From contig NZ_LT934425.1 of assembly GCF_900232105.1 (NCBI RefSeq), forward strand, positions 1,920,001-1,952,000: DNA of 32,000 nucleotides, given 5' to 3'. This DNA is from Candidatus Kuenenia stuttgartensis. Its GTDB lineage: Bacteria; Planctomycetota; Brocadiia; Brocadiales; Brocadiaceae. The position numbers and the translations under genes are program-made. The stretch's first letter is position 1; each line of letters starts with the position of its first letter. The notes under the pieces are model-generated. The model was given only the letters and a program-made list of their open reading frames with translations, ran no database searches and was not told the DNA's origin. Of this stretch, positions 5,410-20,449 are shown in pieces.

Positions 5410-5595
5410 ATGGAATTCAAAAATTTGTCGAATACTATTAAAATACCAGTGATAGGTCTTGGAACATGGACTATTGGCGGAGGAGATGAAGCAGATACCA
5501 CGTATGATAAAGAGAATATTTCTGCAATAAAAACTGCAATCAAACTTGGAATAACACACATTGATAACGCTGAAGCATATGCCCAAGGCCATTCA
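5410..5595 (+). pseudogene. aldo/keto reductase, 5' portion (gene split by IS insertion)
   Basis: MEFKNL..IKIPVIGLGTW...AIKLGITHIDNAEAYAQGHS, after which the reading frame runs into the IS end at 5596. It continues in frame at 7667. Confidence 0.85.
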
Positions 5596-5803
5596 CACGG
5601 CAACGTCAAAGTCACCCTACGAAAGACGCGGATCAAGAATTTGTGCCAAAAGCTCCCGTCAATAAGTGGAGAAGAAAGTAAAAAACGATAGAATTCCCAT
5701 ATAAATCTGCAGAAATGAGCAAAACAAGCAAAATGTAACGGGAGTATCCCTGTGGTAACGAAAGAGATAGTAAAAAAATAAAGGCTTTTTTTTGTTCTCT
5801 ACA

Positions 5804-6238
5804 TTACAAGCGAAGCATTTGAAGTGCAAGAAAAGGTCTTGCCGCAAAATTTCTGAGCGTCTTTGCAATATTTGGTACATTGAGAAAATGAAACAGCCCA
5901 ACCACAAGGTTCTTCAAAGAAGCCATTGCCCTTGGGGCATTTTGTGTGCGTATTTGAGAATGGTCTTCACGGAAGGAGGTATCACGCACATAATGAAGTC
6001 CATTTTCTATTGACCAGTGTCCGCGGGAAAACTTAAGAATGGTTTTGGGACTTGCTTTTTGTTGTGTCAGGCTGGTAATACCGTAAACAATTTCCTCGGT
6101 CTTTTTGCCGGTCTTGACTTTTGTAAATATTCTATGAATGCAAAATACCTGCTTAACGTAGGGGAAATCAAGATATTCGTTTAATTCGGTGCTGGTCCAA
6201 ATCCTGCGGATTTCAATGCGGCCATGGCCTTTTTCAAT
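5804..6238 (-). pseudogene. C-terminal continuation of the ISAs1 transposase, in a different frame
   Basis: Hand translation gives IEKGHGRIEIRRIWTSTELNEYLDFPYVKQVF...SRGHWSIENGLHYVRDTSFREDHSQIRT with no stops. It joins the upstream ORF if one C is removed from the C6 run (ttttcccccctcag, about 6250). Confidence 0.75.
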
Positions 6239-7562
6239 TGTTTCGTGCTGAGGGGGGAAAAGAACTGAGATTCAGTTCCTTGATGGCTTGTTTTATGGTT
6301 TTTTGATTATCTTTCACCGTGAATATATATTCTGCCTTTTTGTCTTCTACCAGATAACGGGCGGTTTCCTTTTGCGCATGTAAGGCATCGAAAGTAACGA
6401 CACGGTCTTTTATGTCTAAATCATCAAACAATACCGGAACCATCGGTATTTCGTTTGTTTTGCGGTCTACCTGAGTTTGTGCGAGAACTATACCCTGTTT
6501 ATGAAGAAAAGCGGCAAGCAAATGTACCTGTTTGCCGTCAGGCTGTCTTGCACCGCAAAGGGTTTTCCCGTCAACCGCAATGGGCAGGCTTTTATCACCT
6601 ACAGATTGAAACCAACGCGAGAGGACTTTATCAACTGCTTCTGCATCCACCTGCTGTAAGAAACGCCTGATGGTAGGTTCACTCGGTGGTTCGTATCGTT
6701 TCGTTTTTGCATTGTAACGGCAGGAGAGACGTTTGAGCATATTTTGCGGACAACGCTTTGCCCACTCTGCAATGGCGGCAAAGCTCCAGGCATTGCAGAT
6801 GATAGCACAGATAGAAATTGCCAGGATAGAACGTTTCCTGTGGCGAACGCCTCTGGGCATGCGATGTTCAGGGATTTGCTGCAATAATTCGTCAAGAAAT
6901 TCCGCATCTTTTAAAGATAATTTCATAGGCTTTGTCTCCTTTCTTAATTGTATGGTAAGATTAAGGTTGTTAAGTTGTTTTTGGACTTGTGCTTTCAATG
7001 AGCGAACAAAGACCATCTTTGGCTTATTGTGCAGAAGATAGCCTTGTGATGATCTGGCAAAACCGGTTGAATGTCCTAAAAAAATCCATCCTGCGGCCTT
7101 ATAGCAGACGCCTTTAAAAAAACGAGGATCGACAAAGGTCTCCACAAACCAGATTGGATGCCCATAGACCTTAGTCCAGTCTTGTGATAAGCGCTTAAGG
7201 TTAAGAGAAAGAATACGGGAGGCAAGGTTTGGTACGTGTATCTGAGGAAGGATCAGGAAACGTGAGTTGTTTGCTATGAGTTTCAGTCGTTGCGATTTTA
7301 AAAATGGCGGCCATCCAATCCACTTATCGCGAACGGTACATTTTAATGCTGCGGCAGCCCAGCCGATCAAGGCAAGCCATTGTCCCTGTGATTCCGCTAC
7401 GTAGCGAATTGATTCTCCTACGAGAGAACGAAATACAAGGTAATGATGCTGGCGCATCAGTGTGTCCCAATTTGCCTGGTCGTTTTGTGAAACAGGACGA
7501 ACGGTAATTGAATGAAGTAGTTCGTTGTGTGTGTTATCGATTGGTGTTGTATGCTGGTTCAT
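6234..7562 (-). CDS. DUF4338 (DruA-like) domain fused to ISAs1-family DDE transposase, portion upstream of a frameshift
   Basis: Residues ~20-195: GW.AAALK...RD.WIGW...LIANNSRFLILP...NLASRILSL.LKRLS.DW...YGHP...ETFVD..RF.G.CYKAAGW (DUF4338 pattern). These are followed by ISAs1-type RGVRH...SILAISICAI, VDGKTL and FDALHAQKET. Confidence 0.8.
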   Translation of the reverse strand: MNQHTTPIDNTHNELLHSITVRPVSQNDQANWDTLMRQHHYLVFRSLVGESIRYVAESQGQWLALIGWAAAALKCTVRDKWIGWPPFLKSQRLKLIANNSRFLILPQIHVPNLASRILSLNLKRLSQDWTKVYGHPIWFVETFVDPRFFKGVCYKAAGWIFLGHSTGFARSSQGYLLHNKPKMVFVRSLKAQVQKQLNNLNLTIQLRKETKPMKLSLKDAEFLDELLQQIPEHRMPRGVRHRKRSILAISICAIICNAWSFAAIAEWAKRCPQNMLKRLSCRYNAKTKRYEPPSEPTIRRFLQQVDAEAVDKVLSRWFQSVGDKSLPIAVDGKTLCGARQPDGKQVHLLAAFLHKQGIVLAQTQVDRKTNEIPMVPVLFDDLDIKDRVVTFDALHAQKETARYLVEDKKAEYIFTVKDNQKTIKQAIKELNLSSFPPSARNN

Positions 7563-7666
7563 GCCCTATAATATAAAATATTTTAGGGGGAATGTCCACG
7601 TTTTTTTACATATCTTTGTATATTATGCGCTTATGGAAAACTTTGACAGCGCCGTGAGGCCATTCA

Positions 7667-8335
7667 GAAGAACTGGTTGGAAGAGCAATCGTTGGTTTAG
7701 ATAGAAAAAGCCTGTTTATCACCTCGAAAGTTTCACCGGAGCATTTAAGCTATGACAATCTTCTTGCTTCTGCAAAAGGAAGCCTGCAAAGATTAAATAC
7801 GGATTATATTGATTTATATTTGATTCATGCGCCTAATCCGGATATCCCAATACAGGAAACCATGAAGGCAATGGATTTTTTAGTTGAACAGAAACTGGTT
7901 AGGTGTATTGGGGTAAGTAATTTTTCGGTTGACCAAATAAAAGAAGCGCAGAAATATACCAAAAACAAAATAGTTGCTAATCAAATTGAATACAACCTAC
8001 TCGTAAGAGACAAAGGCAGAGTTACAGAGAATATGGAATCTGAAATAATTCCCTATTGCCAGGAAAATAATATTTTCATTATCGCATGGAGACCACTTGC
8101 AAAGGGTAAGCTTGCAAAACCGGGTTTCAAAATCTTAGATGAATTAGCTGATAAGTATCATAAGACGCAGGCCCAAATTGCAATAAATTGGCTAATTTCT
8201 AAAAAGGGGATTGTTGTCATTTCGAAATCAACAAAAGTTGAACATCTTGAAAAAAACCTGGGTGCAATTGGCTGGAAATTAAGACAAGAAGATACTGATA
8301 GATTAAATAACGAATTTATTAATTCAAGGACGTAA
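7667..8335 (+). pseudogene. aldo/keto reductase, 3' portion
   Basis: EELVGRAIVGLDRKSLFITSKV...YIDLYLIHAPNP...CIGVSNF...IANQIEYNLL... continues the 5' fragment at 5410-5595 directly, in frame. Confidence 0.85.
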
Positions 8336-8367
8336 ATAAATTTACAAGGTTGATTATTTTTAGAAAT

Positions 8368-8575
8368 AAAGGCTTAAATTTGCCATATTTGAAATAAAAC
8401 GTGTTTATGAAAAACCGGACGAGGGTGCTGGGATAGGGTATTGATTGATCGTCTATGGCCACGGGGACTCAAGAAAGAAGATGCCGCCAAAGATTATTGA
8501 ATGAAAGAGATTGTTTCCTTTGCAGGAAGGCTGTGTGTTGAAAGGGGAAAAGTTACATTTACAGGCAACCAATTA
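8368..8575 (+). pseudogene. decayed paralogue of the DUF488 + small-ORF pair
   Basis: Nucleotide similarity to 2781-2930 and about 3190-3250. Start ATG is now ATA (8385-8387), there is a 1-bp deletion (gggatagggt vs gggataagggt), and about 250 bp of internal sequence is missing. Confidence 0.7.
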
Positions 8576-8609
8576 TATAATGCACATAAAATAAATTTAA
8601 AAAAGGGGG

Positions 8610-9101
8610 ATGATAAGGATGACAAAGTTAGATCCAATTGTAGAATTTAGAGAAGACCACCGAAAGGTAAGGGACGGATTACTTGAATTAATGGAAGCCT
8701 TGCAATCAAAGGATGTTGTTACGGCAAGGAAAATACTTGGCAAAATAAACGTGGCTGTCGGCCCACATTTTCGATATGAGGAAGAAACTCTTTATCCCGC
8801 ACTGCGGGTATTATTAGGCGAGCACGTAGACCAGTTAATAAAGGAGCATGATGGCGTAATAGCTACTGCCCGTTCTTGTGCTGAGCTATTAAAGAAGGAT
8901 AGCCTGACAGATGAAGAGGCAAAAAAGGCGACCACGGCAGCAAGGGAGCTTTTAGTCCACGTCTCAAACTGTGACGGTTTGTCCATACTTTCCGAAAGAT
9001 TGAGTAAAAAGGAAGTTGATAATTTAAGCGAGAAACTTGCTGCCGCAAGAAAGGCAGGCGTACCTTTACTGGATTGGGCAGAAACCATAAGAGGCAAATG
9101 A
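8610..9101 (+). CDS. hemerythrin-like (HHE cation-binding) domain protein
   Basis: F.EDH.K..D.L.EL... H.RYEEE.LYP.L ... EH pattern. The start may be the second ATG at 8619. Confidence 0.55.
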   Translation: MIRMTKLDPIVEFREDHRKVRDGLLELMEALQSKDVVTARKILGKINVAVGPHFRYEEETLYPALRVLLGEHVDQLIKEHDGVIATARSCAELLKKDSLTDEEAKKATTAARELLVHVSNCDGLSILSERLSKKEVDNLSEKLAAARKAGVPLLDWAETIRGK

Positions 9102-9109
9102 AATAAACC

Positions 9110-17605: not shown

Positions 17606-18079
17606 CAAATTTGCTTTCATAATAATGAAAGTATTAAGGTGACAGTTGTTGAACTTCTCTATCAAATCCTTCCTCCCTTGGATAAAGATATGGCATTGCT
17701 CGTCCAGAAACACGTTCGGATGATGGAAAATCTTTTGAGGGAAATGGCGGTGGTGCCGTGACAAAAGTTATCATAGGCAAACAACTGCTACCGGCAGATA
17801 TATACTGTAAGAGTTCACAAATAGGGATTTCTAAAATTAGATTTAACCTCTGTAAACATAATCTGTAAACATAAATAGTTATAGCATTTTTGTAATCACA
17901 TTTTGTGAACTCCTTGAGTATAATTATTCTTCCCATTATGAATTGCCTTAGGTTCTACGGCAATCAAAATAATTGTAACACTTTAGTTCTTTGAAAAATT
18001 AATAGCGAAAAAAGGTAAAAAAAGCTGGCGTCTGTTTTTCCTTTGTGGTATAAAAGGCTTCAATAAAGGGAAACAGTTT

Positions 18080-18961
18080 ATGAAGCCTATCATATTCCAA
18101 TACCGTTCACGAAAACTGCATGCGGACGATATCGCCTTTATAAAGGCGCTCATCGAGCAGCATTTTCTCAGAGGTCGGACTTATATTTCCTGCGAACTAT
18201 GCAAGCATTGGAACTGGGTGCAGCCCAATGGCAAACATAAAGAATACGCAGCACGAGACCTCCTTTTGAGATTAGAAGAACAGGGATTGATAACGCTTCC
18301 TCCACGTATACGGGCCAAAAACAATCTGAAACCCAAGGTCTTTGTCCAGACACCCCTTTTCGTCAGGAGACCACTAGAAGGTAAAATCACAGAGTATGAA
18401 AACCTGACAATCCATGTGGTAAAAGACCCTCAGGAAAGATATCTCTGGGAGTATCTCTTCCAACACTATCACTACCTCGGCAATCCCCGGCTTGTTGGCG
18501 AACACCTCAGACACATCGTACGTATAGGCAATCAGGTTGTTGCCTGCCTGGGGTGGGCAAGCGCCGCATGGAAAGTCAAAGACCGTGATCGTTTCATTGA
18601 ATGGGATGAGACGACTAAACGTACACACTTACATTTGATTGCAAATAACGTACGATTTCTCATTCTACCATGGGTTAAGATCAAACACCTTGCATCCAAG
18701 GTATTGTCACTTGCCCTCAGACGTCTGTCAGATGACTGGAATACCGTTTACGGCCATCCCGTTTATTTAGCCGAAACCTTTGTTGATACCGCGCGGTTTA
18801 AGGGTACCTGCTATCAGGCGGCCAATTGGATTCGTGCTGGCAAAACCAAAGGGAGCGCAAAACGGGGCAATCGCTATCTGTATCATGGCCAACCTAAGGA
18901 TCTCTACCTCTACCCTCTTCAAAAAAACTTTCGGAGGTTTCTTGACTGTGACCAGGGATGA
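18080..18961 (+). CDS. DUF4338 (DruA-like) domain protein encoded within the IS66-family element
   Basis: GW.SAAWKVKDRD.FI.W......HL.LIANN.RFLILPWV.I.HLASKVLSLALRRLSDDW...YGHPV.LAETFVD..RFKGTCYQAANW. Clearly homologous to the N-terminal half of the ORF at 6234-7562. Confidence 0.8.
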   Translation: MKPIIFQYRSRKLHADDIAFIKALIEQHFLRGRTYISCELCKHWNWVQPNGKHKEYAARDLLLRLEEQGLITLPPRIRAKNNLKPKVFVQTPLFVRRPLEGKITEYENLTIHVVKDPQERYLWEYLFQHYHYLGNPRLVGEHLRHIVRIGNQVVACLGWASAAWKVKDRDRFIEWDETTKRTHLHLIANNVRFLILPWVKIKHLASKVLSLALRRLSDDWNTVYGHPVYLAETFVDTARFKGTCYQAANWIRAGKTKGSAKRGNRYLYHGQPKDLYLYPLQKNFRRFLDCDQG

Positions 18962-20318
18962 AGCCATAGCTATTTTGGAGATGGACAGAGAGGATGCGAT
19001 TCAAGCCATCCTGATACTGGCGGAGAAAGCAGAAAAATATGACCGGCTTTGCGATAAACCGGGTCCGACTACCCCTTCCGGTTCGATACCGCCCTATCTA
19101 AAGCCCACAAAGAAAAAGAGAAAACGGCCTTGTGGCAGGAAAAAGGGACATAAGGGAGTTTGCCGGAAACGACCTGAAACAGTAACTGCCTATCAAACGC
19201 ATTCCATGGAGAGTTGCCCTGATTGCCACCAGCCATTACAAAAACCGGTAAGAACTTATAAGCGATACATCGAAGATATTCCACGCCTTGACCCTGTTGT
19301 GACGGAACATACAGTTCATGGTTACTGGTGTGCTTGTTGCAAAAAGATAGTTCAACCCAAGGTCACAGATGCGTTGCATGGCGCCCGACTAGGATTGCGC
19401 CTTGTTGTCTTTACCGCATGGCTTCACTACTTAATCGGTATCAGTGTAAACAACATCGTAAAGATGCTTTCCGTATTTTTCAACCTTCAAATAAGCGCCG
19501 GCGGTCTAACCCAGGCATGGAAATCCCTTGCAACACTCCTGGAGCCACAGTATAACGAGATTGGCCAAAAAGTCTCCGCAAGCGCTGTCTTACATGCAGA
19601 TGAAACCGGATGGAGGTTGAATGGAAAAACCCATTGGCTATGGTGTTTTACAACACAAAAACTCTGCTACTATCTCATAACACCAAGTCGGGGGTCTCCT
19701 GTCATAAAAAAACTCTTGGGCATTCTATTTGGTGGTATCCTGATCTGTGACTTTCTGGGCGCTTACAACAAGATAAGCGCACTGGCAAAGCAGCGGTGTT
19801 TCTATCATCTGTTCACGGAACTCGTGAAAGTAGATGCCCACAACCATTCTGCCGCATGGAAAGCTTTCCGGAAAAAACTCTCCCGGTTGCTCAAGGATGC
19901 CATCCGGTTATCAGAGAAAAAGAACCAGATAAGCCTGGTATGCTTTCTTCGGCTAAAAAAAAGATTGTATCGCAGGCTTGAACAGTTTTTGGCAACGCCT
20001 TGTCAGGATAAAGACGTACAAAGATTGACCAAACGCCTGAAGCGCCATAAACAGGAACTCTTTACGTTCCTGGAACATGAAGGTGTGAGTCCCTATAATA
20101 ATCATGCCGAGCAACAGATGCGAAAGCCAGTATTGACCCGAAAGGTATCACAACAGAATCGTTCTGTTCAGGGCGCCAATACCCAGGCTATCCTTATGAC
20201 GTTGCTTCGCTCTGCAGAATTGCAAGGAGACAACCCCGTGGAAAACCTTCTGGCATACGCCAAAAAAGCTCTTTTAACAAAAACCACTTCCGGCTTAACT
20301 TATAATATCGCTTGTTAA
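18948..20318 (+). CDS. IS66 family DDE transposase (TnpC-like)
   Basis: Basic stretch KKKRKRPCGRKKGHKG, zinc-finger-like CPDCH...CACC, and HADETGWRLNGK.HWLWCF (IS66 DDE block). GTG 18948 (GGAGG 10 nt upstream) overlaps the DUF4338 stop. ATG 18981 is an alternative start. Confidence 0.85.
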   Translation: MTRDEAIAILEMDREDAIQAILILAEKAEKYDRLCDKPGPTTPSGSIPPYLKPTKKKRKRPCGRKKGHKGVCRKRPETVTAYQTHSMESCPDCHQPLQKPVRTYKRYIEDIPRLDPVVTEHTVHGYWCACCKKIVQPKVTDALHGARLGLRLVVFTAWLHYLIGISVNNIVKMLSVFFNLQISAGGLTQAWKSLATLLEPQYNEIGQKVSASAVLHADETGWRLNGKTHWLWCFTTQKLCYYLITPSRGSPVIKKLLGILFGGILICDFLGAYNKISALAKQRCFYHLFTELVKVDAHNHSAAWKAFRKKLSRLLKDAIRLSEKKNQISLVCFLRLKKRLYRRLEQFLATPCQDKDVQRLTKRLKRHKQELFTFLEHEGVSPYNNHAEQQMRKPVLTRKVSQQNRSVQGANTQAILMTLLRSAELQGDNPVENLLAYAKKALLTKTTSGLTYNIAC

Positions 20319-20449
20319 TTTTTCAAAGAACTAAAGTGTTACAAATAATTAAGTGAAAGGCCATTGAAAGTCAGGCGATGGTCACGAACAGTTGAGATCC
20401 TGACATAAACTTGTGTGACGGGGTCTCCTGTCGCAAAAAAGGAGTTAGA

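Follow-up and report, generated by a model that had tools for sequence, protein, structure and literature searches.

Insertion sequences (ISs) are defined by carrying little beyond what movement requires, and within the IS66 family no member of the ISBst12 group, to which ISH10 presumably belongs, is known to have tnpA or tnpB. Outside of transposons, the Mom protein of phage Mu transfers glycine from Gly-tRNA to adenine in double-stranded DNA; its activity requires R111, S124 and R151, and the active site includes H58, Y59, D149 and Y159 (PMC13219725). The domain DUF4338 (PF14236) has already been called a GNAT domain by Burroughs and Aravind (PMC10853773). Here we describe a 2368-bp IS66-family insertion sequence of the anammox bacterium Ca. 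Kuenenia stuttgartiensis, located at positions 17975-20342 of a 32,000-nt stretch of contig NZ_LT934425.1 (the window, to which all coordinates refer), in which a gene encoding a DUF4338 protein, ORF1, precedes the transposase gene. The ORF1 product contains an acyltransferase domain of the GNAT fold; judged by fold and by aligned residues, Mom is the closest relative that has been characterised. With a probability of roughly 0.55, ORF1 is a catalytically active accessory of transposition within a portable module, likely acting on DNA in a Mom-like manner, a mechanism that we infer from the observations below.

An active two-gene IS66-type element

The element is bounded by inverted repeats (IRs) that begin with GTAACAC and match at 28 of 28 positions: the left repeat (IRL), GTAACACTTTAGTTCTTTGAAAAATTAA, at 17975-18002 on the plus strand, and the right repeat (IRR) at 20315-20342 on the minus strand. 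It is flanked by the 8-bp target-site duplication AAATAATT at 17967-17974 and 20343-20350. A first-pass annotation, made from the letters of the sequence alone, had proposed these borders (perfect 28-bp repeats starting GTAAC and an 8-bp duplication), and both direct reading and comparison of the repeated copies confirm them. GTAA-type ends together with an 8-bp target duplication, the combination found here, are characteristic of the IS66 family.

The 2368-bp unit, identical or with one to three differences, occupies at least seven distinct chromosomal sites in Kuenenia assemblies (the window sequence matches contig OCTL01000036.1 of assembly GCA_900232175.1). Perfect 8-bp duplications surround it at four distinct sites, namely TTTTCTGG (present in two assemblies), AATATTTT, AAATAATT (the site of the window copy) and CTTTTTTT, and duplications with one mismatch at two further sites; the target sites are A+T-rich. 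Since identical copies with 8-bp duplications occur at several sites, the element moves as a two-gene unit and is an active, autonomous IS66-family insertion sequence. Accidental adjacency of two unrelated genes between chance repeats is refuted by the perfect 28-bp IRs, by the duplications at several sites, and by the conservation of the unit across dozens of divergent loci.

ORF1 (18080-18961, plus strand) encodes 293 aa and matches PF14236 (DruA/DUF4338) at residues 99-260 with an E-value of 3e-39 and 135.4 bits (Pfam gathering cut-off 27). The second gene (18948-20318, plus strand) encodes a 456-aa DDE transposase of the TnpC type with matches to zf-IS66, to DDE_Tnp_IS66 (PF03050, E 1.2e-37) and to the NCBIfam model transpos_IS66 (NF033517, 246.5 bits, cut-off 180); it is 100% identical to KsCSTR_40750 of Ca. 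Kuenenia stuttgartiensis. As the first-pass annotation had it, the DUF4338 gene is the sole open reading frame (ORF) ahead of tnpC, and the element contains no ORF for TnpA or TnpB. The overlap between the stop codon of ORF1 (18959-18961) and the GTG start of the transposase gene at 18948, pointed out in the same annotation, was also borne out: the GTG lies 11 nt upstream of the stop (a 14-nt overlap counting the stop codon), it is preceded at a distance of 10 nt by a GGAGG ribosome-binding site within the 3' end of ORF1 (18933-18937, plus strand), and homologous transposases align from residue 1 and have the same gene overlap. The transposase is translated from this predicted GTG inside the end of ORF1, so both proteins would be made together from one transcript. 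Two other arrangements were considered and rejected. TTG 18780 is not the transposase start, as the homologues align from GTG 18948, which has the good ribosome-binding site; nor is there a frameshift fusion of the two genes, as no slippery run is present in the overlap, which ranges in length from approximately -24 to +18 nt among relatives.

Among plasmid-borne elements, the best named matches of the transposase are ISH10, ISNpe24 and cyanobacterial IS66 elements, at 27-29% identity; for ISH10 and ISNpe24, identity is 27% over 75% of the protein. The ISBst12 (ISH10-like) group shares with the window element a transposase with zf-IS66 and DDE_Tnp_IS66 domains, GTAA ends, the 8-bp duplication, and the lack of tnpA and tnpB. 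However, members of that group have one ORF, whereas the window element has two, the extra one being a translationally coupled upstream gene that encodes a helix-turn-helix (HTH)-like and a GNAT domain; moreover, the window transposase is at most 29% identical to those of the named plasmid elements. As an element, it represents a new IS66-family variant. Distant, canonical IS66 relatives differ from it in another way. At loci L058, L060, L070, L071 and L074, the gene order is a small HTH ORF in the tnpA position, tnpB (PF05717, E approximately 1e-31), the DUF4338 gene and tnpC, and the transposases carry LZ, zinc-finger, DDE and C-terminal domains, whereas the window transposase lacks the LZ and C-terminal IS66 domains. 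Given that order, DUF4338 does not stand in for TnpA/TnpB; judged by the gene content of these loci, it is an add-on that coexists with them and not a substitute. Replacement of TnpA/TnpB by the DUF4338 gene, as the first-pass annotation put it, thus describes the window element but does not hold generally. In the likelier history, as far as it can be reconstructed, the DUF4338 gene would have been added to a single-gene element.

Relatives of ORF1 are numerous (4369 at E<=1e-5 in a collection clustered at 90%). The top 120 are approximately 292 aa long, and many of them are on contigs of approximately 2.36 kb, the length of the element itself. Each of the 22 closest full-length copies (52-86% identity) has a close IS66-type transposase gene immediately after the DUF4338 gene, usually with the same short overlap, which is retained in copies down to 55% identity. 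The ends of the relatives share the consensus GTAACACTTTAGCTCTTTGAAAA, kept in copies just 55-67% identical at the protein level; copies whose IRs reach the GTAAC terminus are 2351-2372 bp long, and matching 8-bp duplications are also present in L013 and, after a one-base shift of the boundary, in L007. The ratio of nonsynonymous to synonymous substitution rates (dN/dS) is 0.14-0.19 for ORF1 versus 0.175 for the transposase, and dN of the two genes is nearly equal in every pair compared (0.083/0.078, 0.243/0.252 and 0.264/0.278). Purifying selection on ORF1, as estimated from these alignments, is as strong as that on the transposase. As ISs keep little that mobility does not need, a gene under transposase-like constraint indicates an unrecognised step or control of transposition.

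Internally deleted derivatives with intact IRs were found in L001 (a Brocadia bin, 7852-9107, 1256 bp), L002 and L059; ORF1 is kept or mostly kept in them, and the transposase gene is largely lost. The L001 remnant has been called as a single 360-aa fusion of DruA and DDE_Tnp_IS66. On the L094 contig, the flanks of the element come from two different Kuenenia insertion sites, the left from one and the right from the other (by comparison with L087/L088), as a result of either recombination among the copies or a chimeric assembly at the repeat.

The ORF1 protein and its relation to Mom

In the AlphaFold2 model of ORF1, built from a 15-sequence alignment, the mean predicted local distance difference test score (pLDDT) is 75.6. 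The model comprises an N-terminal three-helix, HTH-like domain (residues 15-67, pLDDT 76-95), a disordered linker, and an alpha/beta domain at approximately residues 99-289. When the model was compared with the PDB by Foldseek, the best match was phage Mu Mom (8bv8, E 5.7e-7, 18% identity), followed by GNATs such as SpeG. There were 229 matches at E<=0.001, and all 50 of those listed are GNAT acyltransferases. Among the viral models of BFVD, phage NAT_SF proteins are near the top, and Mom of Salmonella phage FSL SP-031 ranks third. Several phage proteins of 400-700 aa annotated as homing endonucleases or endonuclease-like were also among the BFVD matches (ranks 19-33, E approximately 1e-5), and they might represent a similar domain joined to another type of mobile-element nuclease.

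Sequence comparison leads to the same relative. Besides PF14236, the only Pfam family touched by ORF1 and its relatives is Mom (PF25680, E from 1e-5 to 0.016). In the hhalign alignment of the two families, H58/Y59 of Mom correspond to H131/Y132 of ORF1, S124 to S206, D149 to D236, Y159 to Y245, and the motif YQASNF to YQAANW. Residues H131, R169, N190, R192, S206, E232, T233, Y245 and K273 are conserved in at least 90% of 150 diverse representatives. ORF1 and Mom thus have in common the GNAT fold, the aligned His-Tyr, Ser, Asp and Tyr residues and the YQA(A/S)N(W/F) motif, and the conservation pattern and the model together suggest that ORF1 is probably an active enzyme. Its N-terminal helical domain, as modelled, is probably DNA-binding.

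Most GNATs acylate proteins or small molecules, and SpeG and N-terminal acetyltransferases are close to Mom in fold score; ORF1 could accordingly be a protein acetyltransferase, acting on the transposase or on a nucleoid protein, or else a non-catalytic regulator that binds the element ends by means of its helical domain and thereby represses or assembles the transpososome. The predicted N-terminal helical domain agrees with this alternative, as does a gene order like that of regulator-then-transposase operons, and small accessory ORFs of other insertion sequences act in the non-catalytic way. However, Mom is the only GNAT family detected by sequence, and the invariant polar residues argue against a purely structural role. 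Moreover, short ISAs1 fusions have dropped the helical domain and kept the GNAT core, with only the transposase's own DNA-binding domain left, so it is the core that appears to be the selected part. Taken as a whole, this alternative seems to us unlikely. A GNAT-type toxin, for example an aminoacyl-tRNA acetylase that stabilises the element by addiction, would be suggested by the existence of GNAT toxins acting on charged tRNA and by the binding of charged tRNA by Mom (PMC13219725). It is highly improbable: the 2368-bp element has no antitoxin-sized partner gene, at least seven expressed copies would be hard to tolerate, and fusion to transposases does not fit a toxin.

Transposase partners of DUF4338 and the surrounding window

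The genomic context of the family was surveyed in the best 80 matches to ORF1 from a scan of one genome per species across many phyla, a sample biased to ORF1 relatives. A transposase gene adjoins the DUF4338 gene or is fused to it in 73 of the 75 informative loci (five of the 80 contigs end too early to judge, and two loci are unexplained). The transposase is co-oriented and directly downstream, or fused, in 71 of the 80, its type being IS66 in 40, IS1182-like in 12, ISAs1 in 12 (all fused) and ISKra4 in seven; in two more loci, an IS66 transposase gene is directly upstream. The suggestion of the first-pass annotation that a portable module has been recruited by different transposase families is supported at the level of association and extended.

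In a much larger collection, 8089 relatives were found at E<=1e-3 among 1.84 billion cluster representatives. Sixty proteins longer than 330 aa, taken from the best 150 of these representatives, were scanned for fused domains: DDE_Tnp_1_assoc was found in 20 members, DDE_Tnp_1 in 17, DDE_5 (IS701 type) in seven, DDE_Tnp_IS66 in three, IS630-type HTH domains in two, and DDE_3 (IS630 type) and Tnp_DNA_bind (IS4/Tn5 type) in one each. DUF4338 genes partner with at least four transposase families, and probably with seven or more. In a neighbour-joining tree of the GNAT core, the sequences group by partner transposase family, with a single clade for each of the IS1182-like, ISAs1 and close-IS66 groups and with ISKra4 partners at two places among distant IS66 partners. 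This grouping indicates long co-divergence of the DUF4338 lineages with IS66, ISAs1, IS1182-like and ISKra4 transposases, with few partner switches. On plasmid pTs485 of Ca. Thiodictyon syntrophicum (L095, NZ_CP020372.1 282572-285774), a DUF4338 gene is followed, in the same orientation, by genes for a site-specific integrase and an IS91-family (non-DDE) transposase; these could represent either one more class of partner or simply nested elements. No description of the DUF4338-transposase association was found in the literature searched, a scope that did not include ISfinder and TnPedia, and the recurrent pairing of a Mom-like GNAT with many transposase families appears not to have been described before.

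The fusions bear on another explanation, in which ORF1 is cargo independent of transposition, either an orphan Mom-like modifier directed against restriction or Druantia, or an IS-carried defence component. Mom guards phage DNA against restriction (PMC13219725), PF14236 takes its name from DruA of Druantia, the catalytic-looking residues are conserved, and mobile elements in general often carry anti-defence genes. Mere cargo is, however, hard to reconcile with in-frame fusions to transposases, found here with at least five transposase domain types, and the fixed, translationally coupled upstream position would not be expected either. The equal constraint and divergence of the two genes and the co-divergence by transposase family point to a unit, and at least seven identical copies per genome bring no obvious dosage benefit to a cargo gene. 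The Druantia version meets a further difficulty, as the DruA models of PADLOC-DB gave no match at E<=0.01 to ORF1 or to the ISAs1 fusion described below. We consider independent cargo rather unlikely, and the view of the first-pass annotation that ISs may ferry a defence-derived module gains no support.

ORF1 and DruA of Druantia type I belong to the same Pfam family, PF14236, and the term DruA-like, used in the first-pass annotation, is appropriate at that level only. In contrast to DruA, ORF1 has a transposase as its partner, and no druB-E genes were found in the window, where the longest ORF has 554 aa, so that a large DruE helicase is absent as well. ORF1 is not a defence-system DruA and should not be counted as a defence gene. 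Some metagenomic relatives on IS-sized contigs have been named 'Druantia anti-phage system protein DruA' by their sources, and for the clade of ORF1 this name is probably wrong.

The window contains a second element with the same module, as had been noticed in the first-pass annotation. It is an ISAs1-type insertion sequence of 2061 bp (5596-7656, minus strand) with the ends CACGGC...GCCGTG; its borders follow from independent copies in other samples (L097-L100) that are 100% identical to it and cease to be homologous beyond 7656 and 5596. The element is flanked by the 10-bp duplication AGGCCATTCA (5586-5595 and 7657-7666) and splits an aldo/keto reductase gene (5410-5595 and 7657-8335). Its 442-aa ORF (6234-7562, minus strand) encodes the DUF4338 GNAT core, lacking the N-terminal helical domain and matched by the DruA model at residues 21-168 (77.3 bits, cut-off 27), then DDE_Tnp_1_assoc, and last the beginning of the ISAs1 DDE domain (DDE_Tnp_1). 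The ISAs1 model NF033564 was matched with 139 bits (cut-off 70), which together with the 10-bp duplication places the element in the ISAs1 family. Homology between its N-terminal domain and ORF1, proposed earlier from shared sequence blocks, is confirmed: an ungapped alignment of the two DUF4338 cores spans 167 aa at 46% identity (E 4e-49).

This protein was first described as a fusion. The DUF4338 domain is indeed fused to the transposase, but the whole is not one simple ORF, the C-terminal third of the transposase being in the +1 frame. The 442-aa ORF ends immediately downstream of a T4C6 slippery run (6261-6252), and three-frame translation of 5804-6261 (minus strand) yields the continuation (HETIEKGHGRIE...HWSIENGLHYVRDTSFRED...), which holds the last catalytic motif. 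Thirteen homologues of different phyla, 40-55% identical, show the same change from frame n to n+1 at a conserved T(3-5)C(5-7) run, after which TGA or TCA often comes next (L045, two copies in L046, L048, L052, L055, L067, L073, L075, L076, L077, L080 and L082). The 442-aa ORF is not a truncated pseudogene, as its homologues stop at the same position and are likewise continued in the +1 frame; the split looks like programmed +1 frameshifting or transcriptional slippage and not decay. No description of such frameshifting or slippage in ISAs1 was found in the literature searched.

Besides the transposase gene, the neighbours of ORF1 are a glyoxalase gene and an oxidoreductase gene. No site was found between IRL and ORF1 in a scan for sigma-70 promoters, from whose consensus planctomycete promoters may differ. 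At 20320-20349, an outward-facing -35-like hexamer in IRR (TTCAAA or TTTTCA) pairs with AATAAT in the flank; this putative promoter, a consensus match only, might transcribe the glyoxalase gene next to the element or, in a circular intermediate, act as a junction promoter. Two perfect tandem copies of the 13-bp sequence TCTGTAAACATAA (17849-17874) lie just upstream of the insertion site and are enclosed by an imperfect inverted repeat with arms of 37 nt (17801-17837 and 17886-17922). The repeats at 17801-17922 may be a regulatory region of the flanking host genes.

Possible role of ORF1 and its implications

We favour a role of ORF1 as a catalytically active accessory factor of transposition and not as cargo. 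It would be brought to DNA by its own helical domain, or in fused versions by the DNA-binding domains of the transposase, and would acylate a substrate beside the transposase. The most likely substrate would be DNA, modified in a Mom-like way at the element ends, in the transposition intermediate or at the target; the transposase itself or a bound host factor would be a less likely one. The modification might license, time or protect transposition. In our ranking, acylation of the transposase or a host factor is the close rival of this proposal, and independent cargo and a toxin are the weaker ones. Non-transposase genes that travel and are conserved with transposases have precedents, such as TnpB, shared by IS200/IS605 and IS607, and TnpA/TnpB of IS66. 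In contrast to them, ORF1 is a GNAT protein and neither a nuclease nor a small helical protein; it differs also in being fused in-frame to transposases in some relatives.

Several points weigh against a Mom-like role in transposition. The structural model is of medium confidence and rests on a shallow alignment, and protein and polyamine acetyltransferases of the SpeG type score almost as well by fold. The matches to the Mom family PF25680 (15.3 bits for ORF1 and 24.6-25.6 bits for relatives) are under the gathering cut-off of 27.1; the hhalign comparison of the ORF1 family with Mom reached an E-value of 0.012-0.024, no better with a deeper alignment, and a search of PDB sequences with the family profile gave no match at E<=1. 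In the hhalign alignment, the equivalents of the essential R111 and R151 of Mom are not cleanly aligned, R192 and R239 being a few positions off. The essential HTH-like insertion of Mom (approximately residues 175-209) is absent from ORF1: the aligned region ends before it, and ORF1, which has just approximately 40 residues after its YQAANW motif, carries the N-terminal helical domain instead. The context differs as well, an insertion sequence for ORF1 and a phage late operon with Com for Mom. Trans-complementation among IS copies could relax the step from purifying selection to a role in transposition. A DUF4338 gene is lacking from most IS66, ISAs1, ISKra4 and IS1182 elements, which nevertheless transpose, so that it cannot belong to the core chemistry of transposition. 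Finally, the 80-locus sample is uninformative on the Druantia-linked part of PF14236, and many of its loci are IS-sized contigs from metagenome bins, which makes their taxonomic labels unreliable; the spread is most trustworthy on long contigs, which include Desulfobacterales, Desulfobulbus, Verrucomicrobiae, Ignavibacteria, Binatia and the isolate Desulfallas sp. Bu1-1.

A broader and more tentative proposal, which we regard as doubtful though worth stating, is that DUF4338 proteins are a large unrecognised class of Mom-like DNA-marking enzymes, possibly using charged tRNA, which ISs have recruited repeatedly and to which DruA belongs as the same enzyme. If this is true, many IS families have recruited Mom-like marking to control or protect their own transposition, and Druantia would have turned the same enzyme, as DruA, to self-marking in defence, unless the borrowing went the other way; transposons would then encode an epigenetic mark, and the function of DruA could be tested directly.

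At least four transposase families have taken up DUF4338 as a neighbouring gene, and three more as a fused domain. Thousands of metagenomic proteins labelled 'Druantia protein DruA' are probably parts of ISs and should not be counted as defence genes. As its nearest characterised relative makes an unusual base modification in DNA from a charged tRNA, the module can be put forward as a concrete candidate for a DNA mark borne by transposons, and it provides a lead on DruA of Druantia type I.

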